Shown here: positions 6,216-64,000 of the stretch, piece after piece
Layout of the letters: each line of letters opens with the position of its first letter
Numbering within the stretch: the stretch's first letter is position 1
NCBI GenBank assembly: GCA_033664045.1
Contig: GCA_033664045.1_3674.1
Direction: 5' to 3' (one strand)
Length of the DNA stretch: 64,000 nucleotides
DNA from: a phage
Translations under genes and position numbers: made by a program
The notes under the pieces: model-generated
Databases searched by the model: none
What the model was told of the DNA's origin: nothing
The model's input: only the letters and a program-made list of their open reading frames with translations

Positions 6216-7499
6216 TCATTCCAGAACCTCCCAAGTGTCTGGGTTAACATTTCGGACGCAGATACCGACAGGGAATTGGTAGTTGTTGTCTTCTGTCCTT
6301 GCTTGGTATTTGAAGGTGACAAACTTGCCGATCATTTCCTGCATCCTGTCATAGCTACGCTCCTCGTGCGTGCCTTTCATCTTCATTTTAACAACAACAC
6401 CTTCCTTGTCAACACAGATAAGAACACCTTCATCATTCTTATCTTTCTCAACGTCAATAACTTTCACCTCTGCGTCGTTGAACTTTTTCCATTTCAATGC
6501 TTCAGATGTTCGCTGACCATACTCATACTTACCACAGAAGTTACGCATAATGGTACCTTCATATCCTTCGGACATGAATATACCAACAGATTCTTCGCAA
6601 TGATCAACTGTGTACGCAAGCTCTGCGTCAACAACCTTGATATGGTCAAGCATCAGGGTGGTAACGGTATCCTCTGCATCCATAAGATCTTTGCAGCGTC
6701 CAGACTCTGTTTCTGGATCCCACCACACCTTGTCGCTAGGAATATCAAAAATGTGATACTCCAGATCGTAGCTACAGTACCCACCGTAACGCAAATCATC
6801 ACGAACAGGCTCAACATCGACAGGAATATCTACCTTGTTGAAGTTTTTGTACGTTGATAAGCCTGCCTTAATTGCGGCATGACGGCGTTTTTTATCTGCC
6901 TCATAGTCTTTATCGATCTCGGCCTGAATCTCTTCCTGTGTGCGCCACCGTTTAGCAAGAGACACTATTTTCTGCAAAGGAAGACCATGAATGTATAGTT
7001 CCCCATCAAGTTGTTTAATCCCAGTGGTAGAATGGAAAGAACGAAGTTGCTCTAAAAGCTTTCCTTGAATAGGGTAGGACTTATTGCCACGGGAAATAAA
7101 TTTAGGCTCACCATTTTGGAAAACAACAAGCAGACGAAGGCCATCTAACTTACGCAAGATCCAGCAAGGTAATTTAAGTGCCTTGCCACGCTTCAGATAG
7201 TCATGCACCAGCATGGGTAAAAGGTCAACACCCTGCTCGCAATCTTCCATGTTTTCAACATACCCCAGACGGACTTGTTTTTCCCACTTACTGATCGCTT
7301 CCAGCTCGGCCTGTTGCTCAGCTGTAGTCTCGTTGGCACGACCTACGTTCTTAGGTGTGCATACCGTCTCTTTGTACTGCAATTTACCGTCAAGCTTGCC
7401 AAACTCTACGATAACCTTTTCGCCATCTGTAAATACTTTCCATTGCTGGTAACTTCCATCTTTATTCAGTGCGTACAGTGTTGTTTTGATCTGATGCAT
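6216..7499 (-). CDS. ATP-dependent DNA ligase
   Basis: Adenylation motif I ILRKLDGLRLL (KxDGxR) plus EGTIMR and KWKKF motifs; length suits NTase plus OB domain. Confidence 0.85.
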   Translation of the reverse strand: MHQIKTTLYALNKDGSYQQWKVFTDGEKVIVEFGKLDGKLQYKETVCTPKNVGRANETTAEQQAELEAISKWEKQVRLGYVENMEDCEQGVDLLPMLVHDYLKRGKALKLPCWILRKLDGLRLLVVFQNGEPKFISRGNKSYPIQGKLLEQLRSFHSTTGIKQLDGELYIHGLPLQKIVSLAKRWRTQEEIQAEIDKDYEADKKRRHAAIKAGLSTYKNFNKVDIPVDVEPVRDDLRYGGYCSYDLEYHIFDIPSDKVWWDPETESGRCKDLMDAEDTVTTLMLDHIKVVDAELAYTVDHCEESVGIFMSEGYEGTIMRNFCGKYEYGQRTSEALKWKKFNDAEVKVIDVEKDKNDEGVLICVDKEGVVVKMKMKGTHEERSYDRMQEMIGKFVTFKYQARTEDNNYQFPVGICVRNVNPDTWEVLE

Positions 7500-7768
7500 T
7501 ACTCGGCCTCTTCCTTAAAAATGTTAAACATCTCTTCTTTACTCATTACCAACCAGTCTCCCATAAAGTCAACTAGCCAGTCCCCCTGGTACAAGACAAG
7601 GTTACCAAACGGCTCGACAAGCTCACACATGCGACGAATATCTCTGGTCCGAACAGATGACGATGTAAACACACCTGTATCAATCCACCGTTGCAGATCA
7701 GATACTGATGAAGAGCTTCCGTCAAACTGGTGTGCTTCTACAGGTTTAGCAAGATTAAATAACGGCAT
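7499..7768 (-). CDS. hypothetical protein (89 aa)
   Basis: ORF in operon context only. Confidence 0.35.
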   Translation of the reverse strand: MPLFNLAKPVEAHQFDGSSSSVSDLQRWIDTGVFTSSSVRTRDIRRMCELVEPFGNLVLYQGDWLVDFMGDWLVMSKEEMFNIFKEEAE

Positions 7769-8084
7769 TGCAGTCCTCCTTATCTAATAGGTCTTTTATC
7801 GGGTAAACAAGCAGGTGTGGATCGTAATAATTTATAGTTTTATTCTGCCACACTATGAACTTAATTACAACTAAATTTACCACATCTTTATCTCCATGCA
7901 GTCCAACACACAGATTTGTCCATATTTTGTGGTTGAATACTTTGCTGTCGATGTAGATCTTAGTGTCAAACTTCTCCTCTATACTGCCTATGAGTTTAAC
8001 CAACTCTTTCATCTGATCCCCAAACACAGCATCGTTTTCAAGATCTCTGGAGTGCTTGTACATAACTATCTGCCTCACTTGCAT
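7755..8084 (-). CDS. hypothetical protein (109 aa)
   Basis: ORF in operon context only. Confidence 0.35.
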   Translation of the reverse strand: MQVRQIVMYKHSRDLENDAVFGDQMKELVKLIGSIEEKFDTKIYIDSKVFNHKIWTNLCVGLHGDKDVVNLVVIKFIVWQNKTINYYDPHLLVYPIKDLLDKEDCNAVI

Positions 8085-8126
8085 ACTTTCCGCAACAAGT
8101 AAAGCCGGGTAATCCCGGCTATGTTG

Positions 8127-8840
8127 TTAAATATACTCTGTTACATCCTTGAAGCTCGAAGGCTTCATGATCTTACCTTTACTGTCAAGGAATATGATAA
8201 CTTTATTACCGTTGTAGAATTCTTCCTTGGCAACAAAACCTTCATATCGACCATCAAAGCGTCGTTCAAGATCTTTAATCTCCAACTCTATGAGTTGTTC
8301 AGCAGGCATATCTGCACTGGCACCGTGTGAATACCGTAGATGGTTTACCCGTGCAAACTTGCTGTCATTCGATTTGAGAACCTTACGCATCATCCCGCAC
8401 ACATCGCCGCGAAGCTGGAACAGCAAAGCTGTTGACAACTCCGCTAAGCGGTAAGCTGACGCTCTTTGCTTGGATGTGTTTTTCGCAGCGATCAGTGTAT
8501 CATAGAACTCACCGATCTTGAACTTAAGACCTCGTGGATTATCAAACAGGTTTGACCACTTTTCGTGATTGTCATTAACAAGATAAGCTGCATAACTTGT
8601 GACAACGTGAAGATCGCAGGCCTCTTTTAGCAGGTGATCTCCACCATCACCTTTCTCCAGCTCTTCCAAAACCTCATTAAACTCTTCCTCAATGAAGCTA
8701 AGCTGTAATTCGAATGGTGTGTATGATTTTTTCACTTTAGCTGCCACACGGTTCCAGTTTTCCACCCAATTGGCAGACCAAAGGTAGTTTTCAGGCTGAG
8801 ACAGTTTTTCTAGGTTGTCGATCAGTTTAGTATTCAGCAT
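8127..8840 (-). CDS. MazG-like nucleoside triphosphate pyrophosphohydrolase, putative
   Basis: EEEFNEVLEELEKGD...LKEACDLHVV resembles the MazG ExxE...ExxD metal-binding pattern. Confidence 0.4.
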   Translation of the reverse strand: MLNTKLIDNLEKLSQPENYLWSANWVENWNRVAAKVKKSYTPFELQLSFIEEEFNEVLEELEKGDGGDHLLKEACDLHVVTSYAAYLVNDNHEKWSNLFDNPRGLKFKIGEFYDTLIAAKNTSKQRASAYRLAELSTALLFQLRGDVCGMMRKVLKSNDSKFARVNHLRYSHGASADMPAEQLIELEIKDLERRFDGRYEGFVAKEEFYNGNKVIIFLDSKGKIMKPSSFKDVTEYI

Positions 8841-8853
8841 TAAAGGTCTCCTT

Positions 8854-9615
8854 TTAAAGTTCCATAAAGTTTTCTACAGTTTCAATAAATGCTTTATCAG
8901 AGAAAGCGTCAACAGCACCGTTAAACCATACAGGGATCCCGCGATCCTCATATTGATAAAGGTCGCTACGTGAAATGCCACTTCCATCTGCACTCTGCGA
9001 ATCATACTTGTTTACAATCAGCAGTTTTGTGCCTTTACAAGTAGCAGGAAACAATTCCCAGTTAAAATTAATAACTGTGTTAGAACAACCTACCAGGATC
9101 ACCATATCATTGCTGGTAAGAGAAGTCAACAGGTCATACATGTCTGTATACTTAGGAGCAACCTCACCGAAGAACACCACATTGGGCTTAACCCAAGTAT
9201 ACTTGCCTGTATCTACCTCCGTGTATCCGATATTTTTAATTACATCATTACCTTCAGCATCTTCGTAGGTGATTTCAGGCAAATACCCGTGGACATGTAA
9301 AATATCTTCATGTTTTACACCAGCACGCTCCAGCAAATCATCTACATTGGTGGTAAGGTTGATCACACGACCAGACCAGCGGGAATACCACTCAGCGATC
9401 CGAAGATGTGCAATGTTAGGATCAACACTGCCCAGAGCTACACGACGTGCATTGTAAAAGTCATGCACCTTATAGTAGTTCTTGGCAAAGGTGTGGATGT
9501 TGCACACCTCATCGATGCTGAAATTCTCCCACATTGCAGTGCTACCAGATCGGAAAGTGGGAATACCAGATTCAGCGCTCAAACCAGCACCGGAGATAAT
9601 AATCAGTCGTCGCAT
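8854..9615 (-). CDS. sirtuin (Sir2)-like NAD-dependent deacylase/ADP-ribosyltransferase
   Basis: GAGLSAESGIPTFRS, LTTNVDDLLERAG, HVHG, VVFFGE; the usual CxxC Zn-ribbon cysteines appear absent. Confidence 0.75.
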   Translation of the reverse strand: MRRLIIISGAGLSAESGIPTFRSGSTAMWENFSIDEVCNIHTFAKNYYKVHDFYNARRVALGSVDPNIAHLRIAEWYSRWSGRVINLTTNVDDLLERAGVKHEDILHVHGYLPEITYEDAEGNDVIKNIGYTEVDTGKYTWVKPNVVFFGEVAPKYTDMYDLLTSLTSNDMVILVGCSNTVINFNWELFPATCKGTKLLIVNKYDSQSADGSGISRSDLYQYEDRGIPVWFNGAVDAFSDKAFIETVENFMEL

Positions 9616-9623
9616 AAGTGTCC

Positions 9624-9974
9624 TCAGTAGATGTTTTGTTTAATCTCTATTCCAAACTTTTTAAACGAGTCAGCTGCAAGCATGAATTTACGAGCCGCTG
9701 ATGGATTAGAAGTATGCACGAAAATCTTCACGTTGTCAACTACAGGAGGCTTACCAAATACAAATTTTTCCTCCAACATAGATAGGCAATCGTACCCTTC
9801 GAATACCTCTCCAAGGTCGTTGTCCATATGCCACTCAGAAACGCGTCTGTAGAGCTTTTTATTATCGTTAATAAAATCCATAAACTCGGAGGAATTCTTT
9901 AGCCAAATAGCGTCTTGGAGCCCATAATTTGACGGATCTCTCAAGTCATCAAGCCACACAATCAACTTCTTCAT
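9624..9974 (-). CDS. small receiver-like (Rossmannoid) domain protein, function unknown
   Basis: Conserved-position pattern LIVWLDDLRD ... HMDNDLGE ... IFVHTSNP ... K is reminiscent of a CheY-like fold. Confidence 0.3.
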   Translation of the reverse strand: MKKLIVWLDDLRDPSNYGLQDAIWLKNSSEFMDFINDNKKLYRRVSEWHMDNDLGEVFEGYDCLSMLEEKFVFGKPPVVDNVKIFVHTSNPSAARKFMLAADSFKKFGIEIKQNIY

Positions 9975-10906
9975 TGCATATAGTCCCAGTTGTGGAAATA
10001 GTAATCAAGTATCTCACGGCGTTCCTGCTCCAGGAGACAGTTCCACACGTCTTCTGTGTAATTGCTACGAATGAAGTTTACCATGCCGTAAAACTCTTCG
10101 TCAACACGTTTAAATATATCATCACCCCAAATCTTCCAAGCTTTACTCCTCATTACGGCCTTCCGTGCCAGATAGTATGGAGACTTGATCTTCAGCTGCA
10201 GATCATAAGGGTAGTAAGGCTTACGAATCATATACCCTTCACCTCTTGTTTCTGCAGCTAATTCTTTTGCATAGCTGAACGGAATTTCACGCACAGTGTG
10301 AGGACGTTTTGCACCAAGGTATTTGGCAATCCCATCTAAAGCTGCTTCTGGTAGCATTATTCCAGAATCATTATATCTGCAACCTATCAAATATGCTCCA
10401 TGATCTTCCTGAACAATATGCGGATCTGAAGGGTGACAAATTTCAAACATGAATGTCATGTTTTCATTGCCCATAACCTTCTTGATAAGATCTAAATTAC
10501 CACATTGCTCCCGGATGGTTTCCTTTGCAAGGTTACAATATGGAGAATCAAGAGATCCGGTTGTTGAGAACAATAGTTCCCCTTTATGAGATGATACCAC
10601 ACCGAGGAATCCGTTCTTTTTCTCTACCGCCGTCACAAGCTTATTGTCAGGCAGGTTGGTGGAATTTTCTCCCAAGTTAAACACTTTTGTGAAGGGCCAT
10701 GCCACAACATTTCCTTCATTACCGACAACAATGCCTCGGCACTCCAGCAAACGAGGGGACAAATGCCATAAATTGTTGTAAAATACTTTTCTGGCATATT
10801 TATAGATCTTTAACCCGAGATCTGGGTGATATCTGCTGGTTACAAGACCTTTGTCAACTAGGTCGTCTGCATTAAAATACTTCATCATACGTTCCTCATT
10901 TGTCAT
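9971..10906 (-). CDS. ATP-dependent RNA ligase-like nucleotidyltransferase (Rnl2-like)
   Basis: Motif I VEKKNGF (KxNG), motif IV EGYMIRKP (T4 Rnl2 EGYVLKP), motif V LQLKIKSP; a separate DNA ligase exists at 6216-7499. Confidence 0.6.
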   Translation of the reverse strand: MTNEERMMKYFNADDLVDKGLVTSRYHPDLGLKIYKYARKVFYNNLWHLSPRLLECRGIVVGNEGNVVAWPFTKVFNLGENSTNLPDNKLVTAVEKKNGFLGVVSSHKGELLFSTTGSLDSPYCNLAKETIREQCGNLDLIKKVMGNENMTFMFEICHPSDPHIVQEDHGAYLIGCRYNDSGIMLPEAALDGIAKYLGAKRPHTVREIPFSYAKELAAETRGEGYMIRKPYYPYDLQLKIKSPYYLARKAVMRSKAWKIWGDDIFKRVDEEFYGMVNFIRSNYTEDVWNCLLEQERREILDYYFHNWDYMQ

Positions 10907-14913: not shown

Positions 14914-14988
14914 GCCCTGTTAGCTTAGTGGATAAAGCAGCGGCCTTCTAAGCCGTTGACACTGGTTCGAGTCCAGTACGGGGTGCCA
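14914..14988 (+). tRNA. tRNA-Arg (anticodon TCT)
   Basis: Hand-folded cloverleaf: acceptor GCCCTGT/ACGGGGT with G-U pairs, anticodon loop CTTCTAA, T-loop TTCGAGT, encoded CCA. Ends approximate. Confidence 0.75.
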
Positions 14989-14992
14989 AATT

Positions 14993-15079
14993 GGGGAGTT
15001 ATCCCGTAGAGGTAGCGGTGTAGACTGTAAATCTATTGTCATTGCGACTCGGGTGGTTCGACTCCACCACTCCCCACCA
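14993..15079 (+). tRNA. tRNA-Tyr (anticodon GTA), class II with long variable arm
   Basis: Acceptor GGGGAGT/ACTCCCC, anticodon loop CTGTAAA, T-arm GGTTCGACTCC, encoded CCA; architecture parallels E. coli tRNA-Tyr. Confidence 0.8.
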
Positions 15080-15193
15080 AATTTATATTTTTAAATGTAT
15101 AAATCATACAGATAATGGCATTGATATTTATCGTCGTTTATACTAGTCACTAACTGCTCGAAAATCAGTGTCATTATCAGTATTGTTTATAAA

Positions 15194-15284
15194 AGAGGGT
15201 AGGGAGCAATGGTGCTCAAGCGGTCTTGAAAACCGTCCCGTTGAGGATGACTCGATGATGGTTCGATTCCATTACCCTCTGCCA
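15194..15284 (+). tRNA. tRNA-Ser (anticodon TGA), class II
   Basis: Acceptor AGAGGGT/ACCCTCT, anticodon stem-loop CGGTCTTGAAAACCG, long extra arm, T-arm GGTTCGATTCC, CCA. Confidence 0.75.
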
Positions 15285-15372
15285 TATTGTTGACCTTGTA
15301 ATTAAGCGAAAGCCGGAAGCAGAACCGGATTATCAAATGTTACAGTCGTCATCGCCGACTAGCAACATGGTC

Positions 15373-15481
15373 AACATACTGAGCTAGGTAAGCCCTTTGG
15401 CAAGGGCGAGGATTTTTAATCCTGAAAATAGACGAGGTAGTCGTTGAATACATAGGTGGTTCGATTCCACCGCCTAGCACC
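15373..15481 (+). tRNA. aberrant tRNA-like gene (about 107 nt), possible pseudo-tRNA
   Basis: Perfect acceptor GCTAGGT/GCCTAGC and T-arm GGTGGTTCGATTCCACC, but anticodon region AGGAT-TTTTA-ATCCT and a roughly 30-nt extra arm; CC but no encoded CCA. Confidence 0.35.
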
Positions 15482-15486
15482 TTTTT

Positions 15487-15562
15487 GCTGATGTAGCACA
15501 ATTGGTAATGCAATTGATTTGTAATCAATAGGTTGCAGGTTCAAGTCCTGCCATCAGCACCA
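15487..15562 (+). tRNA. tRNA-Thr (anticodon TGT)
   Basis: Acceptor GCTGATG/CATCAGC, anticodon stem-loop ATTGA-TTTGTAA-TCAAT, T-arm GCAGGTTCAAGTCCTGC, CCA. Confidence 0.8.
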
Positions 15563-15563
15563 A

Positions 15564-15638
15564 GGCCCTGTAGCTGGAAGGTTCAAGCAAGCGACTCATA
15601 ATCGCCAGACGGTGGTTCAATTCCACCCAGGGCCACCA
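15564..15638 (+). tRNA. tRNA-Met-type (anticodon CAT; elongator Met or Ile2 not resolved)
   Basis: Acceptor GGCCCTG/CAGGGCC fully paired, anticodon loop CTCATAA, T-arm GGTGGTTCAATTCCACC, CCA. Confidence 0.7.
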
Positions 15639-15649
15639 AATAATAAATA

Positions 15650-15726
15650 CTCCGCGTAGCTCAGCTTGGTAGAGCGCCTGATTTGGGATCAGGAGGTCGA
15701 GTGTTCGAATCACTCCGTGGAGACCA
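15650..15726 (+). tRNA. tRNA-Pro (anticodon TGG)
   Basis: Acceptor CTCCGCG/CGTGGAG, canonical D-arm GCTCAGCTTGGTAGAGC, anticodon stem-loop CCTGA-TTTGGGA-TCAGG, T-loop TTCGAAT, CCA. Confidence 0.85.
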
Positions 15727-50605: not shown

Positions 50606-51292
50606 ATGGCAGAGATTAAGTCGGATGTTAACCACATCCACACTCTGCCAGATTTTGTTCAGGGAGGTCTTGACTACCTGCCTGGAGATTTTCTGGCTGA
50701 GAAGGTTAATTTAGTCACATTCTTAACCGTATACCTTAAAAGGTTGGAGGATGTTGATAAGATGCTGGTAGGTTTGGCTGAAGGAAGATTGCTTAACAAT
50801 GCCAGCGGAAGATACCTTGACGAAGTTGGTAATCAACTTGGTATTCTTAGGAATGGACTTTCAGATGCTGATTTTCGTGCCACACTAATTATTCAGCAGG
50901 CCGCAGCATCAAGGGGCGGGACTCGCGAAGATGTCATCTCCACCTTGCGACAATTGTTCGGAAGAGACAATTTCGATACGTGGAAAGGAGACAACTTCAG
51001 GTTTGACATAAATATTAGAAAAACTTGCTTTGACATATTGCAGTCTATCGATCAGATCTTAGATATGCTGCCATTGCCTTGTCATTTGCGTCTTACAGAA
51101 TCGCAAGGGCAAGCTTTTGGTTTTGAAGGGGACTCTACAGCTCTTGGCTTCGGATCAGTGTGGGAAGAAAACCAATTCGGAGTTGGTGGGCTGGCTACTT
51201 TGCTATATGTTCCTGACGTAAGACCTGATTGGGACACCACAACCATTTATTGTGAAAGTATTACAGTAAACGCAACTAGACAGGAGGGTTAA
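50606..51292 (+). CDS. baseplate/tail fibre-proximal protein (gpI-like?), hypothetical
   Basis: Gene order after J-like protein. Confidence 0.35.
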   Translation: MAEIKSDVNHIHTLPDFVQGGLDYLPGDFLAEKVNLVTFLTVYLKRLEDVDKMLVGLAEGRLLNNASGRYLDEVGNQLGILRNGLSDADFRATLIIQQAAASRGGTREDVISTLRQLFGRDNFDTWKGDNFRFDINIRKTCFDILQSIDQILDMLPLPCHLRLTESQGQAFGFEGDSTALGFGSVWEENQFGVGGLATLLYVPDVRPDWDTTTIYCESITVNATRQEG

Positions 51293-53364
51293 TGGCAACA
51301 GCTGTTTTTAAACCTTACCGTGATTACTCTACAATGGCTGCACAGTTTCATTACCGAACAGTTCAGGATACTGCCGTTCCTGGTAGGGATTATAATCATG
51401 TTGAGGGCGATGTAACTATCCCAATTGGGGCAACCAGTATTGAAATCCCAGTGGAAATTGTTGACAAATTACCCAACAGGTTACCAAGAAGCTTCTTTAT
51501 GGAGTTTTCATCAAAATCTCAAGGGGTGATGATTGGGACACAAAGGGCAAAATGCACAATAGTTTCAGATGAGAATCTTGACAGGATATCTTGGGATACT
51601 GTTGAGGAGAGAATGTTTCACCCAAGATATTGGGTTACAACCACCCAGCAGACTGAAAGTACCTGTATTGTTGCAGATGACAACTGTTGTATTAACCGTT
51701 TAGTGTCAAGAACATATGGAGGTATGGCTGGGTGCATTTGGGAAACAGTTGACAAGTATGACCATTTCGGTATTGGGTTTGATGATCACTATGAGATGAG
51801 AAACACCAAGCTTTGGTTCAGAATGTCAATAACCAATGCCAGCAACTTCTCCACTCCTGAAAAGATGATTATGACTGTAGACCTTGTTGATGGCACAATC
51901 ATCTATGTTCCTTTAGCTCAATATGCTGTCAGCATCTCAGAGGATAAGAATGTTGCAGAGATTCATATTGATTTCGAGGACTGCGTCGGGATGGATCAGA
52001 ACAACAACATGATGGGTGTTGATCCTCGACAGGTGAGAAGGATTTTAATACCGCTTATGCCTAAAGATTGGGTAAGTAATAGCACAGACCCGAGAACGGA
52101 AAATGTAGAGTGCGAGTTGCGCTTAGACCTGCTTCAGCCAGACACAGGTTGGAAAATGATGCAACTTAACAATATTCAGGTTAAAGAGCACGACGTTGGG
52201 ATCTGCACCGCATATGACGATATGTGGAACGTATCTCCTTTAAGGGTGTTGAACAATATCAAGCGTCTGGGCTATACCGGAACCATAAACCATTATGTTG
52301 GTATGAGTCATTATTATGACTACACATGGTCAGGAACCCAATGGTCTATAAACAGAACAGGGGCGCTAAACGCTGCAGCTTATAAATGGCATGATGATTT
52401 TATGTACAATGCCAAACGACATAACTTCGACGTTATGCAGTCTGTAAGTTTTGAGCTTTACAGCGATGCCTGTCCGTTGGAATGGACCCAAAGAGACTGG
52501 AACGATAACTACGCTAAAACAGGGTATACACCTTGTAGCTACCTCCTGTCTCCAACCATTGAAGAGGGTATGAATTTCCTTACGGCAGTATTTAAGAATT
52601 TTGCATCAGCCGCTATGAGAAACAACCTGCCAGTGATTATGCAGATTGGTGAACCGTGGTGGTGGTTCAATACCGATACTCGTAAGCCTTGTATTTATGA
52701 TTACCCTACAAAACAGGCGTTTTATGATGAGACAGGCGAGTATGCATTAGATATTGGGACTATTGACGATCCTAAAACTGGCGGTGTTTACGACAAGTAT
52801 GTAGCATTTTGTCGTGGTAAGCTTGGCGCTCGTATTGCGGCTATTTCAAAGGCAATAAAAGCACACGCTGCATCAGCTCAGATGACAGCTTTGCTGTTTT
52901 TCCCAACCATTATGGAAACCGAGCTTACGCAAAAGCTGAACCTTGCTGACCAATATAAAAAGGAAGCAGGTGCTCTTGATTTCTTCTGCACTGAGTGCTA
53001 CGATTGGGTGATGCAGGGAGGTATTGAAAAGGCAAAAGAGTCTGTAAACATACCTATCGTTAAGTTAGGTTGGCAACCGTCTGAAATACAATACCTTGCA
53101 GGGTTCGTTCCTAGTAAAGAGCTTGCTCCGGTATATGGCTACGACCCAACCAGGAATTACCAAGAATTTTTATGGAGATGTATCTGCGGGAACATGGCAA
53201 CCATAGAGTATAGATACCCTGAGGTAAAACAGTATGTGTGGGCATACCCGCAAGTAATGTCTGACAGCATCACTGTTACCGCTAGGGATTCTACCGTGCT
53301 TCATATGGGGCAGGTTGCTCTGAAAGGGTATGTAGAAGATGTTGTCCCGCCAGACTTCTCATAA
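51292..53364 (+). CDS. virion protein with N-terminal Calx-beta-like domain
   Basis: HYRTVQDTAVPGRDYNHVEGDVTIPIGATSIEIPVEIVDKLP resembles Calx-beta; large cysteine/tryptophan-rich C-terminal domain of unknown function. Confidence 0.4.
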   Translation: MATAVFKPYRDYSTMAAQFHYRTVQDTAVPGRDYNHVEGDVTIPIGATSIEIPVEIVDKLPNRLPRSFFMEFSSKSQGVMIGTQRAKCTIVSDENLDRISWDTVEERMFHPRYWVTTTQQTESTCIVADDNCCINRLVSRTYGGMAGCIWETVDKYDHFGIGFDDHYEMRNTKLWFRMSITNASNFSTPEKMIMTVDLVDGTIIYVPLAQYAVSISEDKNVAEIHIDFEDCVGMDQNNNMMGVDPRQVRRILIPLMPKDWVSNSTDPRTENVECELRLDLLQPDTGWKMMQLNNIQVKEHDVGICTAYDDMWNVSPLRVLNNIKRLGYTGTINHYVGMSHYYDYTWSGTQWSINRTGALNAAAYKWHDDFMYNAKRHNFDVMQSVSFELYSDACPLEWTQRDWNDNYAKTGYTPCSYLLSPTIEEGMNFLTAVFKNFASAAMRNNLPVIMQIGEPWWWFNTDTRKPCIYDYPTKQAFYDETGEYALDIGTIDDPKTGGVYDKYVAFCRGKLGARIAAISKAIKAHAASAQMTALLFFPTIMETELTQKLNLADQYKKEAGALDFFCTECYDWVMQGGIEKAKESVNIPIVKLGWQPSEIQYLAGFVPSKELAPVYGYDPTRNYQEFLWRCICGNMATIEYRYPEVKQYVWAYPQVMSDSITVTARDSTVLHMGQVALKGYVEDVVPPDFS

Positions 53365-56760: not shown

Positions 56761-58506
56761 ATGGCGCAAGACATGACAAGCTTCGAGCAGGCGGTAGATC
56801 AAGTAATTGTTGATTCTGAACGTTTGCACTTGATTGTCAACGGTAACGCTGTGGATGAAGTTGTCGTAGAGGATGGGACCACCATCCCTACGGTACGAAA
56901 AGCCATGCTTGACACCCTTTATTTTAAAACGCCACCAATCCCTTGGGCGTATGGTGCATCCACAACAGTTTTTAACCAGTTGTATGAGTTTAAAGGGGAT
57001 ACAGGCCCTCAGTGGTGGTACGCCCCAGCAGCATCAAAATCTAACCCGGTTAGGATGCCAGCAGATCCTTCACAATCTCCGAACTGGAGATTATATACCG
57101 ATTCTGCAGTAATGGCAAAATACTACGCAAAACTTAACAGCCCAAGATTCGAAGGTGACCCGCGAGTACCTACACCTCCAATGGACGATAAGTCCGAGTC
57201 TATAGCAAACACAGAGTTTGTTGTGGACTATGTGGATAGCATATTTAAAGCCATGGAGGGGATGAAAGTTACTGTAGGGTCTTTGGTGGTAAAAGGTCTT
57301 ACAGAACTTGCTAACACCATAGTTGGTGGCACCCTTACCTTACACGGGCCTGTTAATGGAGCGGATTCTACTGCACGCTTCAGGAACCTAATCCTTACTG
57401 CAAATACTTCTACACTGACTTTTGCGTGGAGCGATCCTAAGCATGCAGACTGGAGAAGCACAGAGCTGCAACCTCATGAAGTAGCCACCCACAGAGTTAT
57501 AGCTGACACTATAACTTCTGGGAAACCAGTGGCTAATAACAACGATGTGCATTTTGATGGTCTAGGTAATAACTTTTTTGACTACGTGTACATTCGTGGT
57601 AATGCCATGAAGGCAGCAACCGAACCGACATTGCAGGTTGATGGGACCACCAGGGTTAAGAACCTTGAGGTGACAGGTACCGTTACAGGGATAACCTACT
57701 CTGTAGATGGCACCATGATCTACCCTAGCTATATTGAAAGCACGGGAGATGCACTGATCAATGGAGATTTAGAGGTTGGCGGATCTATAGTCATTCGTGG
57801 CACAGCATCCGTCCAGAACATATCTTTAAATACTCTGCGGGTGAATGAGCGTGCCACTTTTGAAGGAGAAGGGCTTACAGCCAACAAAGGTGCAATTACC
57901 GAGCTGACAACCACTACTCTAACTGCAACAACTGCAAACTCTGAAAACTGCAACGTTACCCGAAACTTGCAGGTAAATGGAGATGTTAGTTTAAACGCAG
58001 CAGGGACGGGCACCACCTACCTTCACAACCTTGAAATATCCGGCACAGTGACTGGGTGGCTGCCAGACTTCTCTAATGTCAACTTTGTTTGTAATGGCAT
58101 TAACTCCAGCGGTAAGATAACCACCTCTCAAGAAATTGAGGCGGGTAAAACCATTACTGCCCCTACTTTCCACGCAGGAAAGGTAGATTTTGATTTAGAG
58201 GAGGTTGACGCGTCCAGTGGGACATGGACACCTAACGGGCAGGCCAGTATGTATGTTGTCCACGCTAAAGGGGATTTTACAATAGGTCAGTGGCCTGGGA
58301 CATCAGCGGAAGATAAACCTTATCCATTCACTGCAGTTATCTATGTCATTCAGGATGCTGTAGGTCACAACGTGACTTTGCACGATAAGTATGCTATCCT
58401 GTCGGCAACACCTGTTATTAACAACAAGGCTAACAGTGTTACCTTGCTGCAATTAACGTATTGTGGTGTTGGTGATATCGTAGACGTAGTAATTGCACAA
58501 CGTTAA
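56761..58506 (+). CDS. tail fibre/spike protein
   Basis: 581 aa, threonine/glycine/asparagine-rich beta-type repeats typical of fibre shafts. Confidence 0.5.
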   Translation: MAQDMTSFEQAVDQVIVDSERLHLIVNGNAVDEVVVEDGTTIPTVRKAMLDTLYFKTPPIPWAYGASTTVFNQLYEFKGDTGPQWWYAPAASKSNPVRMPADPSQSPNWRLYTDSAVMAKYYAKLNSPRFEGDPRVPTPPMDDKSESIANTEFVVDYVDSIFKAMEGMKVTVGSLVVKGLTELANTIVGGTLTLHGPVNGADSTARFRNLILTANTSTLTFAWSDPKHADWRSTELQPHEVATHRVIADTITSGKPVANNNDVHFDGLGNNFFDYVYIRGNAMKAATEPTLQVDGTTRVKNLEVTGTVTGITYSVDGTMIYPSYIESTGDALINGDLEVGGSIVIRGTASVQNISLNTLRVNERATFEGEGLTANKGAITELTTTTLTATTANSENCNVTRNLQVNGDVSLNAAGTGTTYLHNLEISGTVTGWLPDFSNVNFVCNGINSSGKITTSQEIEAGKTITAPTFHAGKVDFDLEEVDASSGTWTPNGQASMYVVHAKGDFTIGQWPGTSAEDKPYPFTAVIYVIQDAVGHNVTLHDKYAILSATPVINNKANSVTLLQLTYCGVGDIVDVVIAQR

Positions 58507-58515
58507 TATATCTAA

Positions 58516-58540
58516 CCGCTCCTGACGGGGCGGTTTTCTT
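58516..58540 (+). terminator. rho-independent terminator
   Basis: CCGCTCC-tgac-GGGGCGG followed by TTTTCTT. Confidence 0.65.
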
Positions 58541-58554
58541 ATCTGGAGAACACA

Positions 58555-61500
58555 ATGCTTCCAATCCCTTTGCTAAAACTTGGTCGTCATTTCCTCGATA
58601 AGAGGGGTGGAATTAAGGAACTTGCTGTTCTGTCATACCCAATAGACAACAGTGATGGCACAAGCACTACAGTACCCTATGTAAATAGCTTAGCTATACT
58701 TTTTGATGATGGTCAACTTAATATCACGGGCTATAACAGGTTCGGAGAGTGCCGCACTGGGGATCTTGACACGATAAACTACCCCAACGAGGCTGCCTGG
58801 AACGTTGATCATGTGTGGAGAGCAGACCGCGCGTTTGTGATCCGAACTTTTGATAACCAGTTTTTCTACATCGGCTGCACTGCAGGGCTTATCGGGTCTG
58901 ATGCTGCAGGCGGTAATGATGTTTGTGTAAGAGAGTGGACACCTCTCCCTGAACAGATTGTTAAAGGGTTGCACCTTGACACACACCCAGAGCGCCTTGT
59001 TGAGGTGATGGGTGGTATTAACAACACTATTTGGGTTATTGCAGAGGCAGAAGGCACTGGCATACTGAATCTGTATGGATCTGGTAACAACACCTACGGA
59101 TCTTTGCATGTAGATAAAAACCAGCATGCAACTCCTGTAAAGATTGGTGAAACATCGGAAAATCCTGAAACAGGTCCTTGGAAAAACCCAAGCATCAACT
59201 GCGAGGTGCATGACAACTCTGTTATTTTCGGCGGTCCTAGAGGTTTCTGGATTGCTGGATACGACTTTCTGAGAAACAACAGTAGAAACGACCTTGTTTG
59301 GCCTCCTGTGCAGATTACTCGTAACGATTTGAGAGGCATTCCTGCAGATGAGGAGTGGAAAGGGTTTATGTGTGGTCCTAACGGGGCAATAATTGCCACA
59401 CAGAGGATGCACAAACCCAATGACCAGCAGCTTGTTAACGTATTCTACGGGCAAGACGTCTGGGGAGATGACACATGGCGTTCCTTAAATATCACCTACA
59501 CTCATGAGGTGATAATGGCTCGTGGATACGGCACAAGTGGCATTTTCTTCAATAATGGCACTAAGCAGTATCGTGGATTCTCTCGCAACTTGTGTAATGA
59601 TATTGGTGCACAATCTGCAAACAATAGCCCTAGGGCTAATTTTATTCACTATCAGGCTCTGGCTACGGCTAAATACGTCGAGCAACGTCTGCCAGTTAGC
59701 TGGACAGAGAGTGTTTATTTCCAAGGCATCCACAGAGAAGGTTTCTTAGGGACCTTTACTGTTGTTAATGGCAAACTTTGGTGGTCAGGCATCCCAAGGG
59801 GGAGTTTTGCAGGCTCTAACAACCTGTTTGGCGGCAGACTTAATAGTCAGGGGTTCACAGAGGTTCCTGAGAATTGGTATAAAAATGTCCCGGTAGACAG
59901 TTGGGGTGTTGATGATATTTTCGACGTTAACGGTGTTAGCAGCGTTAGCAATATTTACATTGGTGACACGGTCAAGATGAAATTGAAGCCTCAGCCAGAG
60001 GGAGCTACGTTCATTATTGACAAGATTGAACTGGTAAATGCTGCAGGTACGGTTGTTACAGATGCAAATTACCAATTCTCCACCAACTGGAACCACGGCG
60101 GGGCCAACGAGGTTGTTGTTACCCAGTATAACAGAAATGTTAACAGACGTGGCCTGTACTCTGTAAAAATAACCTATCATGACAAGCATGGCACAGGCAG
60201 AACCCATACGACAAGAACTTTGAACTGGAACACCATAGTTCCTGCGTATCCGTCCAACGGCAAGTGGCATACTGTCGGTAGAAACAAACAGTTCCATGTC
60301 AACGATACTGTATACTTCGGGCTTAACGCAGCTCAACCTGTTGTAGAAGGCGATACATCGTATATGGTACGACTCCATAGAATGGATGCCGGGTCTGTAA
60401 CCTACGATGTGACTCAAGAGATCTACGATCAGAGACGTACTACGTATGACAATGTTGTGAAAACACAAGCCTTGTGGGAGTTCAACCCTAACGGCAGAGG
60501 CGGTAAAATGTTGCAGGTCAACGAGCAAAACGGAACATCGTTGACTGTCCATGAGCATCCAGATCCTTGGCCTGATCCTGGAAAACCTAACTCTGGTGCT
60601 CGTACACTGAAAATTGTCAGCCATGATGCAGGATATTTCGGAATACGCTGGGAAGCTACAGTAAGATATGCCGACGGGACAACAAACAACATAGGGATTA
60701 CACTTGGCGGCACTAGTGAAGATAACTCACTGAAAATTGCCTACACCCCTAGAGGCATCTCTATTGACAATATGGATGTTGTTCGCAACGGTTACGGCGA
60801 TGTGAATGTCAAAGTTACTCTTGGCGAACATCTTGGTGGGGAAAGGATCATCATGTATGCCTTTGATCATGACCCTCGCACCAACGGAACCTATGCAGAC
60901 CAGGCGTGGAGTTACCTGATAAGCGCACCTGAGCCAAATACTAAAGAATTCTACTACGGTATGAAGCGAGATGTGTGCAAGAAAACAGGGACACATGACT
61001 GGATTGCGATCTGTGTTAAAGATGAACGCACCGCTTGGAACGAGCCTGTTAACAGATGGTTCATAGGTATTCCCACCCGAAGTGATAAATACGTTGAAGA
61101 ATATATTGTGTGCATGGGCGGCACCAACCTTAATATGTGTTGGAACGAGGATGCAAACAACAAATACTCTGATTATGACTATATGCGGGACTATTCTTGC
61201 AATCAGTGGTTTAACCAACCTGGATATGCTGATCGACAGGCAAGAGTGAATCCTGCAATCTTCACAGATACTCAGGTTTTCTTGACAAAACAGGCTAACG
61301 AGGTTCAGACCTTCAAGAACAAATATGACCCTAACAAGTGGTTTTATAACTGTTATGGCGCATTTTTCTGGGGCCCAGGGGAACTACCTGGTGGTGGGTC
61401 TTGCTTCGAGGCTGCAACTTACGCCAGTGACAGATTCATGGGGCAGGTCAAGAAGTACAAGATAATTCCAGGGCCTGAAACTTTGGGTAATGCTGTTGAT

Positions 61501-64000
61501 CCTTACATCATCATGACCGTACTAAGATCGAACATGGACGGAACATCCATATCTATGCAGGTTCCGATAACAAACGGCTACAAGCGTGTTGTGATGATCA
61601 TTAAGTGCGACTTAATAGGTAAGCAAGTTCTTGCAGAAAACGGAACCTCAACACATTTATTTGAGACTGCTCTGCACTATCAGTTTGCTGATTCACCTTT
61701 TGCAGGGGATAAGAGAATATCAGATACAGACACTGCGCGGTGCAAAAAATTTATGCTTGGCGGCGGATGGTGGTGGTATGAATTTGATTTAACAGACAAA
61801 TTCACCGACACATCTAAAGTGGTGACAGGACTTCGTCTAGACCTGGGTGAGAACATGCATAAAAGTGTTTGTGATGGCACCTACGGTGATCCTACGGTAT
61901 ACTTGAAGTATGTCTCTTTTGAGCACCCTGAAGATGTTGTTTATGGTCCAAAACTGAGGCTGTTTGGCAATTGGATTGCTAAAGACAGAGAAGGGATGGG
62001 TAGGAAGGTAAGAGGCTTCTTGGTCGATGCTGGCACAGAGGATATGCTGGTGAATGCGGTGTGGCCTGAATTACCGGGAACTCAGTGGGACAATTCTGCT
62101 AAGTCTATAAACTGGTTCAATATCCACAGAGCTATGTGGGCAACTAACTGCTATCTGTGGAAAGAGTTGAATGACGGCGCTTTCGGGTTTACTGGTGGCA
62201 GAAGAATGGCAATCATTTGCTGGACAACGCTGCAGAGATGTTATGACCATGACTATGAGATTGGAGGCAGGGCATGGAAAAATATAAGGGATAGAATCAT
62301 AACTAACTTTGCAGATCCTAACGGTGGCGGGGCGTATGGTTTCGACTGCAGCAGGCTTATCCATTTGAACGGATCTTCGGCCTATAAGAAAGAAGGCTAC
62401 TCTGGGTCCATGATTGAATGGGGCTTGGTAAAAGATTCTCGTGTGTTGATGGGTCAGCAACTTGCTGCTGCAATAGGACCGAACGCAGTACAATCTGTTA
62501 AACCAGCATGGTTCGATATCCCATTATGGTCCTCTGGAACACCAGGAACTGCTGCAATCAACCCTACCACTGGGGATCTGGAAATCTCCTGGGAGGACCT
62601 GAAGCAGGTCGGTGGCTGGGATAAGACAGGGTACCAGGTGCAATGGTGGAGATCTGACGGATCGTTAGCGGCTGATGAGTTTGTTAGGGACAATTTCTAC
62701 ACTATGTCCTCTGCAAAAGCACAGCAATTATTTGGTCAGGCAACTCCGTCAACGATCACCATGTCTATGTGCTGTAAAGACAACAGGACTGGAGCTTTGG
62801 GACCAAGGGTTGCTAAGGTTTTCTCAGGTATTAAATGGAATCTTCCTGTTCAAAGTGTTGCATGGAAGCAAATAGGTGATAACAAGCTGCTGGTTACCCC
62901 TGCTTGTCAGTTCAACGCAACTCTTAACGTTGATCCTGCTGTTGCGGCAAACTCAGCTAAAGCTTCTGACTTCTCTGTGTCTAACGCTGCTATGGCAGAT
63001 GTGAGGAAGATTGACACACTGAACGCCAGAATTACCTGTAAAAACACTTATGGTACATTCCAGATCATCAACAACTTCACAGATACTGATTCTAAGGTAG
63101 TGAGGACAGCAAGCCAGACTCTGAGTTTAGGAACTCTGGCATACTCTGCCCTAATCACTGAACAGTCCTCTACCCTTCAGGGTGGGGGTGTTGGTAAGTT
63201 GATCACAACCCCTGTGTGGAAGCCAAATGAGTGGGTTGTATTCGATTTGACTGTGGACTTCTCCAGTGATAATAACTGGACATGGGTAAGGAATTGCTTG
63301 TCACAGTTGATGGGCGGTCCAAGCTCCATTAGCGATAGTCACGACTCTACTGACCCGAGCGTGTTCCAGGTGGGTAAAACTCACCCAGAGACTGGAGAAA
63401 CGTTGCCTGACAGGAAGTATGCTTTGGTTTGCATCTCCAACGGCAAGGCAGATGTCACATTCTCAGGCACACACGCTTATAACGGTACATATAACTTCTC
63501 AAGGAAGTATAGTCTCAAAGCAGGTAACATTATAGACGAGGTTGGTGTGCTGTATAATCCGGGCAACGGCATAGGGATTGTGGGCGGTAAACTGCAGATG
63601 CAGGAACCTTCTATCACCCCTTCCAACGTATCCGGGATTAGAAAGACTTGGGAAAGTAGTAATACCAACATTGCAACAGTGGATGCCACCACAGGGCTGG
63701 TAACATTTAAAGCTACTGGGAATGTCACCATAAAGTTTGTAGTTACAGATGATGCAGGCCGCAAAACGTCTTCAACATCGTTTACTGTCAGGCAGATGGC
63801 ACCTCAGTGGTTTATTTGGGAAGGAAATCCTCTTGACGGGGCTTATCCTAGACCTGCAGGAACGTCCAATATGAGGGTCTTTACCGGTCCGGTCATGAAC
63901 AATCCGACCACAACCACCAACCCTACATTTTTTGGTGCTTACATACCTGAAATTATTGGCCTACCAAGGAACCAGATACAACTGCTTTTCGGAGCAGGTG
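58555..64000 (+). CDS. giant virion-surface protein (>1800 aa, partial) with Ig-like (Big_2-type) domain
   Basis: ATG 58555 after GGAGA; hand translation found no in-frame stop to the window end; near 63.6 kb reads ISGIRKTWESSNTNIATVDATTGLVTFKATGNVTIKFVVTDDAGRKTSSTSF, an Ig-like pattern. Confidence 0.6.
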   Translation, partial: MLPIPLLKLGRHFLDKRGGIKELAVLSYPIDNSDGTSTTVPYVNSLAILFDDGQLNITGYNRFGECRTGDLDTINYPNEAAWNVDHVWRADRAFVIRTFDNQFFYIGCTAGLIGSDAAGGNDVCVREWTPLPEQIVKGLHLDTHPERLVEVMGGINNTIWVIAEAEGTGILNLYGSGNNTYGSLHVDKNQHATPVKIGETSENPETGPWKNPSINCEVHDNSVIFGGPRGFWIAGYDFLRNNSRNDLVWPPVQITRNDLRGIPADEEWKGFMCGPNGAIIATQRMHKPNDQQLVNVFYGQDVWGDDTWRSLNITYTHEVIMARGYGTSGIFFNNGTKQYRGFSRNLCNDIGAQSANNSPRANFIHYQALATAKYVEQRLPVSWTESVYFQGIHREGFLGTFTVVNGKLWWSGIPRGSFAGSNNLFGGRLNSQGFTEVPENWYKNVPVDSWGVDDIFDVNGVSSVSNIYIGDTVKMKLKPQPEGATFIIDKIELVNAAGTVVTDANYQFSTNWNHGGANEVVVTQYNRNVNRRGLYSVKITYHDKHGTGRTHTTRTLNWNTIVPAYPSNGKWHTVGRNKQFHVNDTVYFGLNAAQPVVEGDTSYMVRLHRMDAGSVTYDVTQEIYDQRRTTYDNVVKTQALWEFNPNGRGGKMLQVNEQNGTSLTVHEHPDPWPDPGKPNSGARTLKIVSHDAGYFGIRWEATVRYADGTTNNIGITLGGTSEDNSLKIAYTPRGISIDNMDVVRNGYGDVNVKVTLGEHLGGERIIMYAFDHDPRTNGTYADQAWSYLISAPEPNTKEFYYGMKRDVCKKTGTHDWIAICVKDERTAWNEPVNRWFIGIPTRSDKYVEEYIVCMGGTNLNMCWNEDANNKYSDYDYMRDYSCNQWFNQPGYADRQARVNPAIFTDTQVFLTKQANEVQTFKNKYDPNKWFYNCYGAFFWGPGELPGGGSCFEAATYASDRFMGQVKKYKIIPGPETLGNAVDPYIIMTVLRSNMDGTSISMQVPITNGYKRVVMIIKCDLIGKQVLAENGTSTHLFETALHYQFADSPFAGDKRISDTDTARCKKFMLGGGWWWYEFDLTDKFTDTSKVVTGLRLDLGENMHKSVCDGTYGDPTVYLKYVSFEHPEDVVYGPKLRLFGNWIAKDREGMGRKVRGFLVDAGTEDMLVNAVWPELPGTQWDNSAKSINWFNIHRAMWATNCYLWKELNDGAFGFTGGRRMAIICWTTLQRCYDHDYEIGGRAWKNIRDRIITNFADPNGGGAYGFDCSRLIHLNGSSAYKKEGYSGSMIEWGLVKDSRVLMGQQLAAAIGPNAVQSVKPAWFDIPLWSSGTPGTAAINPTTGDLEISWEDLKQVGGWDKTGYQVQWWRSDGSLAADEFVRDNFYTMSSAKAQQLFGQATPSTITMSMCCKDNRTGALGPRVAKVFSGIKWNLPVQSVAWKQIGDNKLLVTPACQFNATLNVDPAVAANSAKASDFSVSNAAMADVRKIDTLNARITCKNTYGTFQIINNFTDTDSKVVRTASQTLSLGTLAYSALITEQSSTLQGGGVGKLITTPVWKPNEWVVFDLTVDFSSDNNWTWVRNCLSQLMGGPSSISDSHDSTDPSVFQVGKTHPETGETLPDRKYALVCISNGKADVTFSGTHAYNGTYNFSRKYSLKAGNIIDEVGVLYNPGNGIGIVGGKLQMQEPSITPSNVSGIRKTWESSNTNIATVDATTGLVTFKATGNVTIKFVVTDDAGRKTSSTSFTVRQMAPQWFIWEGNPLDGAYPRPAGTSNMRVFTGPVMNNPTTTTNPTFFGAYIPEIIGLPRNQIQLLFGAG

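Follow-up and report, generated by a model that had tools for sequence, protein, structure and literature searches.

Phages of the Vequintavirinae are described as having three sets of lateral tail fibres, and according to the BASEL study the assignment of genes to these fibres is unclear (PMC8594841); in the related phage phi92, fibre II is unassigned (PMC13450770). The tail genes of these phages include a giant one, known in rV5 as ORF27 (ABI79098), with a product of 1,878 amino acids (aa) and 208 kDa, and in Bas54 and Bas56 as bas54_0041 and bas56_0040, both of 1,875 aa and bearing the label ‘lateral tail fiber protein with intimin domain’; a further orthologue, ECTP4_00497, is labelled ‘Ig-like domain protein’ (Ig, immunoglobulin). 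Mass spectrometry of rV5 virions recorded locus 27 through 3 peptides (9 spectra, coverage 3.1%; supplementary file 5 of PMC3606486). On E. coli K-12, bas54_0041 tolerates disruptive transposon insertions, and different fibre genes turn conditionally essential on clinical isolates (preprint 10.1101/2025.11.20.689424). The RBPseg study describes on Bas49 and Bas54 a Vequintavirinae fibre class, TC8, in which a helical bundle and two beta-helices are combined with a C-terminal head, and it reports an unassigned density on the head of a Vequintavirinae fibre, for which a ‘tail tip adhesin’ was suggested (PMC12143355). The cryo-electron microscopy (cryo-EM) papers on phiTE and phi92 make no mention of a counterpart or of an RCC1-like protein.

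The present analysis concerns the orthologue of this gene in a phage contig, GCA_033664045.1_3674.1 of the NCBI GenBank assembly GCA_033664045.1, of which a stretch of 64,000 nucleotides, here called the window, was analysed. The gene starts at position 58,555 and is cut by the window end. The reading that is favoured, with somewhat more confidence than doubt, is that its product is a low-copy distal tail adhesin, non-essential or conditionally useful, rather than a canonical trimeric fibre shaft. The gene closes the Vequintavirus tail-fibre operon and encodes an rV5 gp27 orthologue of ~208 kDa, which would act as a monomer; its expression probably depends on read-through of a conserved intergenic terminator, and its copy number would thereby be low. 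The invariant N-terminus and an RCC1-like propeller (aa 1-440) would anchor the protein to the virion, the N-terminus docking on the conserved C-terminal head of the fibre that is encoded immediately upstream. From there a long arm of beta-sandwich modules, which may include a jelly-roll resembling a carbohydrate-binding module (CBM), together with a family-specific and highly constrained core, would lead to a fast-evolving C-terminal tip (Big_2 and about 140 aa) that may touch variable surface glycans. The gene itself has already been deposited and annotated many times, and as a discovery it is ordinary; what is added here is the RCC1-like call on aa 1-440, the predicted CBM-like jelly-roll with the Ig-like beta-sandwiches after it, and the orphan core.

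Identity and coding status of the giant gene

The features that bear on the reading frame are as follows.

58555..63999, plus strand: giant open reading frame (ORF), codons 1-1815 of about 1,878, the rest lying past the window end; orthologous to rV5 ORF27, bas54_0041 and PHROG 15684
58690..59454, minus strand: shadow ORF, with internal stops in 1-3 of 4 relatives
59785-60624, minus strand: shadow ORF, with internal stops in 1-3 of 4 relatives
60727-61218, minus strand: shadow ORF, with internal stops in 1-3 of 4 relatives
62071-62493, minus strand: shadow ORF, with internal stops in 1-3 of 4 relatives

A first-pass annotation of the window had found, by hand translation, a frame without in-frame stop from the ATG at 58555, and translation of 58555-64000 (plus strand) by software gives the same result, with 1,815 sense codons and zero stops up to the window end. 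Calculated for uniform codon use, the probability of such a stop-free run is ~(61/64)^1815, roughly 1e-38. The gene of the relatives is 5,628-5,637 nt long (1,875-1,878 aa), all relatives compared running on for ~60 codons past window codon 1815, so that the window copy is short by about 60 codons. Identity to the rV5, Bas54, Bas56 and ECTP4 orthologues is 94-97% at the aa level over all 1,815 codons, and 74-82% of the nucleotide differences from these four relatives fall at codon position 3; the differences are allelic only and lie mostly in aa 100-300 and beyond aa 1700. The overall ratio of nonsynonymous to synonymous differences per site (pN/pS), obtained by Nei-Gojobori-type counting over all pairs, is 0.084.

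The earlier suspicion that the minus-strand ORFs of this span are shadow ORFs holds for the four sizeable ones, because stops interrupt each of them in relatives whereas the plus frame is always intact (four of the four close relatives), and their being the true genes is thereby ruled out. A sequencing or assembly artefact is also excluded, since the ORF is intact in more than 100 genomes. The window thus contains a real coding gene.

Over the 6 kb around the ORF, DNA identity is 91-95% to more than 100 deposited phage genomes, nearly all of them Escherichia Vequintavirus (rV5-like), and on this similarity the window is assigned to a Vequintavirus (rV5-like) coliphage. Its match to PHROG 15684 runs from end to end of the protein and scores 4,262 bits, with aa 1-1815 aligned to positions 1-1818 of the 1,878 in the profile, and bas54_0041 is confirmed as an orthologue of the window gene. 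The giant gene is the last of a baseplate and tail-fibre operon, located 3' of a gp28-type fibre gene and followed by genes on the opposite strand; in the rV5, Bas54, Bas56 and ECTP4 orthologues both the start and the operon position are as in the window. This gene order is kept in Bas56, ECTP4, rV5, Bas54 and the P0015 contig, and it is identical even in a relative with only 41% identity. The protein family as a whole amounts to only 15 clusters at 90% identity.

Several database entries for this family deserve a comment. The deposited genomes of V18 (NC_041937), YP-6 (OQ376695), APECc02 (NC_041869), JES2013 (KC690136) and Alma (OV101294) have the giant gene split into 2-6 pieces or coding sequences, and a truncated form of 557 aa makes up a cluster of 77 sequences (P0018). 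Such copies go back either to frameshifts that arose in sequencing a long gene or to its natural inactivation, and the latter would be in keeping with dispensability. Fifteen or 16 unannotated GenBank records of the MG0656xx series, filed as ‘Campylobacter phage’ (host C. jejuni), are 91-95% identical to window positions 58000-64000 and probably represent Vequintavirus genomes that were mislabelled or are contaminants. A fragment of 318 aa (P0020) with the NCBI label ‘Eggerthella lenta’ is 99% identical to the N-terminus of the giant phage protein, and the 955-bp contig that codes for it is probably a contaminant. The closest full-length homologue (P0001) has a precomputed match to PF26918, a family absent from all Pfam scans run here that may already cover a portion of the giant protein.

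The N-terminal module and the upstream fibre head

Two features are central to the proposed attachment of the protein.

58555..59874 (aa 1-440), plus strand: RCC1-like beta-propeller module, called by homology to syntenic Phapecoctavirus and Seunavirus tail proteins
56761..58506, plus strand: upstream tail-fibre gene of 581 aa, orthologue of rV5 gp28 and bas54_0040 according to the annotation of relatives

The N-terminal module is shared with two groups of shorter, syntenic proteins that belong to PHROG 11922. One is the last ‘tail protein’ of the Phapecoctavirus tail operon (for example nepoznato gp039, phAPEC8; 890 aa) and the other includes the Seunavirus counterparts GAP31_232, 4MG gp038 and PVP-SE1 gene 40 (567-604 aa). 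Nepoznato gp039 matches the N-terminus of the giant protein with a BLAST E value of 2e-27, and identity to the short proteins is 40% over aa 1-197, with the sequences remaining alignable to about aa 440. When the N-terminal 460 aa were used in a word-indexed search for homologues, three fragments only came back. The short proteins carry one or two Big_2 domains after the propeller and have a conserved hairpin upstream of the gene, but they do not have the middle of ~1,200 aa that holds the beta-sandwiches, the CBM-like module and the orphan core. Compared with the Phapecoctavirus and Seunavirus protein, that of Vequintavirus is expanded two- to threefold.

The module is called RCC1-like because the relatives pass the RCC1 threshold and because a joint profile matches RCC1-like structures in the PDB. 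The Seunavirus and Phapecoctavirus homologues score 24-37 bits with Pfam RCC1 (threshold 21.7) and also match the RCC1-like domain model. When the joint N-terminal profile (460 aa) was compared with the PDB, 21 of the 22 matches were RCC1-like domains, headed by HERC1 (3.6e-7) and followed by HERC2, RPGR, UVR8, RCC2 and ATS1, with E values of 3.6e-7 to 0.04 for these named structures. The similarity of aa 1-440 to these eukaryotic domains is remote and carries no functional link. Weak WD40_RLD matches occur in 12 of 16 family members, the best (E = 1e-4) lying far under the 150-bit cut-off, and about seven motifs of the G-x-N/G-x-G type can be counted by eye in the module.

A propeller of this kind bears on a rival reading in line with the BASEL annotation, in which the protein would be a lateral tail fibre of the canonical homotrimeric type that sits directly on the baseplate. 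The gene does lie in the tail-fibre operon and is annotated in that way, the Vequintavirinae are described as having lateral-fibre sets without clear genes, and peptides have been recovered from virions. The RCC1-like fold class, however, is known from single-chain domains. Moreover, Pfam gives neither a coiled coil or beta-helix nor a Peptidase_S74 or fibre-tip signature for the protein, unlike the neighbouring fibre genes, which carry Peptidase_S74, Tail_spike_N, Phage_Tail_Tip and Caudo_TAP, and searches with Pfam, NCBIfam and fold comparison revealed no trimerising shaft, C-terminal intramolecular chaperone or dedicated assembly chaperone. The fold matches are instead to Ig and CBM modules arranged as beads on a string, the intimin score behind the label is only 22 bits against an NCBIfam cut-off of 1,400, and cryo-EM of Bas49 and Bas54 resolved three fibres only, among which the giant protein is not named. 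A lateral fibre is consequently regarded as possible but unlikely.

For the distal adhesin that is preferred here, the most likely anchor point would be the upstream fibre's conserved C-terminal head. This head (~110 aa, about aa 475-581 of the 581-aa protein) is conserved in every genus that has the propeller gene. In Phapecoctavirus the fibre encoded upstream (positions 6935-8959 of locus L005) shares the head, whereas the rest is unrelated and its shaft is made of collagen-like G-x-y repeats (GDKGEKGD...). The Pfam families Phage_phiTE_241_N/C are recorded for the homologue of the upstream fibre in the 41%-identical relative (locus L006). The published description of TC8 fits the 581-aa fibre, and if the two are the same, the giant protein becomes the obvious candidate for the unassigned density on the fibre head.

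The arm, the orphan core and the C-terminal tip

The remainder of the protein was modelled with AlphaFold2, which was run on two overlapping halves using a 16-sequence family alignment, with confidence expressed as the predicted local distance difference test (pLDDT). The individual beta-sandwich domains are well modelled and usable (aa ~735-855, ~969-1124, ~1329-1429 and ~1529-1749), which does not hold for the propeller or the helical core. Together with the sequence searches, the models give the following map.

60757..61119 (aa ~735-855), plus strand: predicted beta-sandwich domain, pLDDT 70-86, with Ig-type Foldseek matches
61045..62574 (aa 831-1340), plus strand: orphan core, family-specific, Trp- and Cys-rich, pN/pS 0.01-0.06
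61459..61926 (aa ~969-1124), plus strand: predicted CBM-like beta-jelly-roll within the orphan core, with fold similarity to CBM structures
61939..62514 (aa ~1129-1320), plus strand: predicted alpha-helical region, a low-confidence model that holds the most constrained stretch (aa 1201-1300)
62539..62841 (aa ~1329-1429), plus strand: predicted Ig/FN3-like beta-sandwich, moderate confidence
63139..63534 (aa ~1529-1660), plus strand: predicted Ig-like beta-sandwich domains
63598..63753 (aa 1682-1733), plus strand: Big_2 bacterial Ig-like domain (PF02368), Pfam 33.6 bits against a cut-off of 22.8
63802..63999 (aa 1750-1815), plus strand: start of the variable C-terminal tip, which goes on for about 60 aa past the window

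Big_2 is the sole domain that can be recognised by sequence in the window protein itself (Pfam, NCBIfam and PDB sequence searches), and it accounts for the Ig pattern noticed near 63.6 kb in the first-pass annotation. Its score rises to 38.6 bits when sub-segments are scanned, and it has sequence matches to the Ig domains of intimin and Sap. Relaxed Pfam scans of six sub-segments gave no match between aa 460 and 1590, and PDB sequence searches with the protein and the full family profile returned Ig matches only. The ‘intimin domain’ of the BASEL label can be traced to one Big_2-type Ig domain that aligns with intimin (E = 0.004). Intimin's beta-barrel, LysM and C-type lectin domain are absent from the giant protein, and homology to intimin as such is ruled out by the NCBIfam equivalog model (22.3 bits against a cut-off of 1,400).

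Foldseek searches with the whole models yielded only generic strings of tandem Ig-like or cadherin-like domains (S-layer Sap, LigA, protocadherins and the SU10 and N4 tail appendages). Comparable phage appendage proteins with multiple Ig or CBM modules are the N4 gp65 non-contractile sheath (9lc0_I), the SU10 surface protein (7z47_G), the R4C ‘Megatron’ (8gtc_M) and T4 Hoc, but these share no sequence homology with the giant protein beyond the Ig fold and differ from it in attachment modules and positions. The CBM matches of the fold search, which gives no query ranges, are placed on the ~155-aa domain at aa 969-1124 because of its size, and this domain is accordingly only predicted to be CBM-like; Pfam gives no CBM match even at E <= 5.

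The orphan core has no Pfam, NCBIfam or PDB sequence match, and an exhaustive profile search of 1.84 billion representative proteins with aa 831-1340 turned up no relative from outside the family. The core could be imagined as a new polysaccharide-degrading or -modifying enzyme, one more blade in a ‘Swiss army knife’ of glycan-active tail proteins. However, neither Pfam and NCBIfam nor the sequence searches of the PDB and the profile search of 1.84 billion proteins gave a catalytic family, the model of the helical part has a pLDDT below 50, and a match to GH85 can be explained by the accessory beta-sandwich domains of GH85, since it is beta-sandwiches that make up what was confidently modelled of the query. 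An enzymatic core is hence thought quite improbable. The first-pass annotation had expected adhesion or enzymatic modules in a protein of this kind; the adhesion part is borne out by the Ig-like and CBM-like beta-sandwiches, whereas no method gave an enzymatic module. A more ambitious version of the adhesin reading, regarded as doubtful, would see in the single chain of ~208 kDa a ‘tip adhesin’ of new architecture, with the propeller sitting on the gp28-type head as the Bas49/Bas54 density, and a core that forms a new glycan-active fold or enzyme and widens the host range on capsulated or smooth hosts.

Selection is uneven along the protein. Values of pN/pS are 0.02 at aa 1-100 and 0.01 at aa 1201-1300, where constraint is strongest, but reach 0.42 at aa 1701-1800, the highest value, and 0.19 at aa 1801-1885; in the C-terminal tip, identity to rV5 and ECTP4 falls to 78-84%. 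This gradient from a conserved N-terminus to a diversifying tip is the polarity usually seen, from anchor to tip, in phage receptor-binding proteins.

The Ig-like domains in the C-terminal part also allow for a Hoc-like decoration, in which they would provide weak adherence to mucus or environmental glycans in place of host recognition. Big_2 itself, a match to PHROG 215 (annotated as ‘structural protein with Ig domain’ and filed under head and packaging), dispensability in the laboratory and the description of epithelium-binding Ig-domain phage adhesins (PMC13370021) all speak for such a role. The PHROG 215 match, though, is limited to the Ig region at aa 1592-1760, the gene closes a tail-fibre operon and does not lie in a head module, and the N-terminal module is common to ‘tail protein’ genes at the same position in related genera. 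This alternative is therefore judged very unlikely.

Expression and weight of the adhesin reading

The gene upstream ends at 58506, and the space before the giant gene contains two elements.

58514..58535, plus strand: intrinsic-terminator-like hairpin between the two genes, AACCGCTCC-TGAC-GGGGCGGTT followed by a T-run, with a GC-rich stem of 9 bp
58545..58549, plus strand: Shine-Dalgarno sequence GGAGA, 5 nt 5' of the ATG at 58555 and invariant in Vequintavirus relatives

The terminator and ribosome-binding site that had been noted before the ATG are thus both present. The hairpin has a folding energy of -16.7 kcal/mol (z = -3.2), and its position before the last tail gene is kept across three genera. 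In the 41%-identical relative (L006, about 9965-10000) the stem carries compensatory changes, and in Phapecoctavirus (L005, about 8960-9000) a different GC hairpin occupies the same place. That the position is conserved while the stems differ or carry compensatory changes suggests that the hairpin is a selected attenuator. No good promoter was found between the hairpin and the ATG at 58555, and with the hairpin conserved in position it is reasonable to infer that the giant gene is expressed by terminator read-through at a reduced level.

A number of points weigh against the distal adhesin that is favoured here. The window protein itself reaches threshold with none of Pfam RCC1, RCC1_2 or WD40_RLD (RCC1_2 scores 13.6 bits against 22), self-comparison of the N-terminal alignment with hhalign detects no significant blade repeat (E = 0.6), and AlphaFold2 models the propeller poorly, pLDDT being below 50 for most of aa 146-435. 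Overall confidence of the models is low, with a mean pLDDT of 44 and 52 for the two halves, and the CBM-like fold is of a generic type. With regard to the virion, the first-pass annotation had placed the protein on the phage surface, and the rV5 peptides agree with this, although as evidence they are weak: mass-spectrometry support is thin, no published density has been assigned to the giant protein, and the rV5 paper did not flag ORF27 as structural, its Table S3 entry reading conserved hypothetical protein, with a Big_2 domain (PMC3606486). That TC8 (fibre RBP65) is the gp28 orthologue is no more than a possibility. Finally, the label given by the BASEL annotators is that of a lateral tail fibre, and a trimeric state is possible.

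Elsewhere in the window, a tail protein of 690 aa (51292-53364) combines Calx-beta and NCTSP_N with a TIM barrel of the N4 gp65-type non-contractile tail sheath (E = 1e-79), and it is the fibre that BASEL ties to ECA/NGR glycan recognition. A tRNA cluster lies at 14914-15726, where ARAGORN calls seven genes, namely Arg-TCT, Tyr-GTA, Ser-TGA, Thr-TGT, Met-CAT, Pro-TGG and a 99-nt call (15383-15481) with a 4-base anticodon (atcc). Rfam, at its gathering score, confirms Arg, Tyr, Thr, Met and Pro only, leaving the Ser and 4-base-anticodon calls unconfirmed.

The rV5-like phages are among the most often isolated coliphages and are used in O157 typing, biocontrol and therapy cocktails, their broad host range being ascribed to a multi-fibre ‘Swiss army knife’. 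The giant gene is the largest of that tail apparatus and, though dispensable on K-12, experiences strong purifying selection. What remains of particular interest is an orphan core of ~500 aa, strongly constrained and without relatives elsewhere, together with a docking hypothesis that can be tested. The proposed position of the protein, as an add-on to the gp28-type fibre, and the domain map would give a testable basis for host-range engineering.

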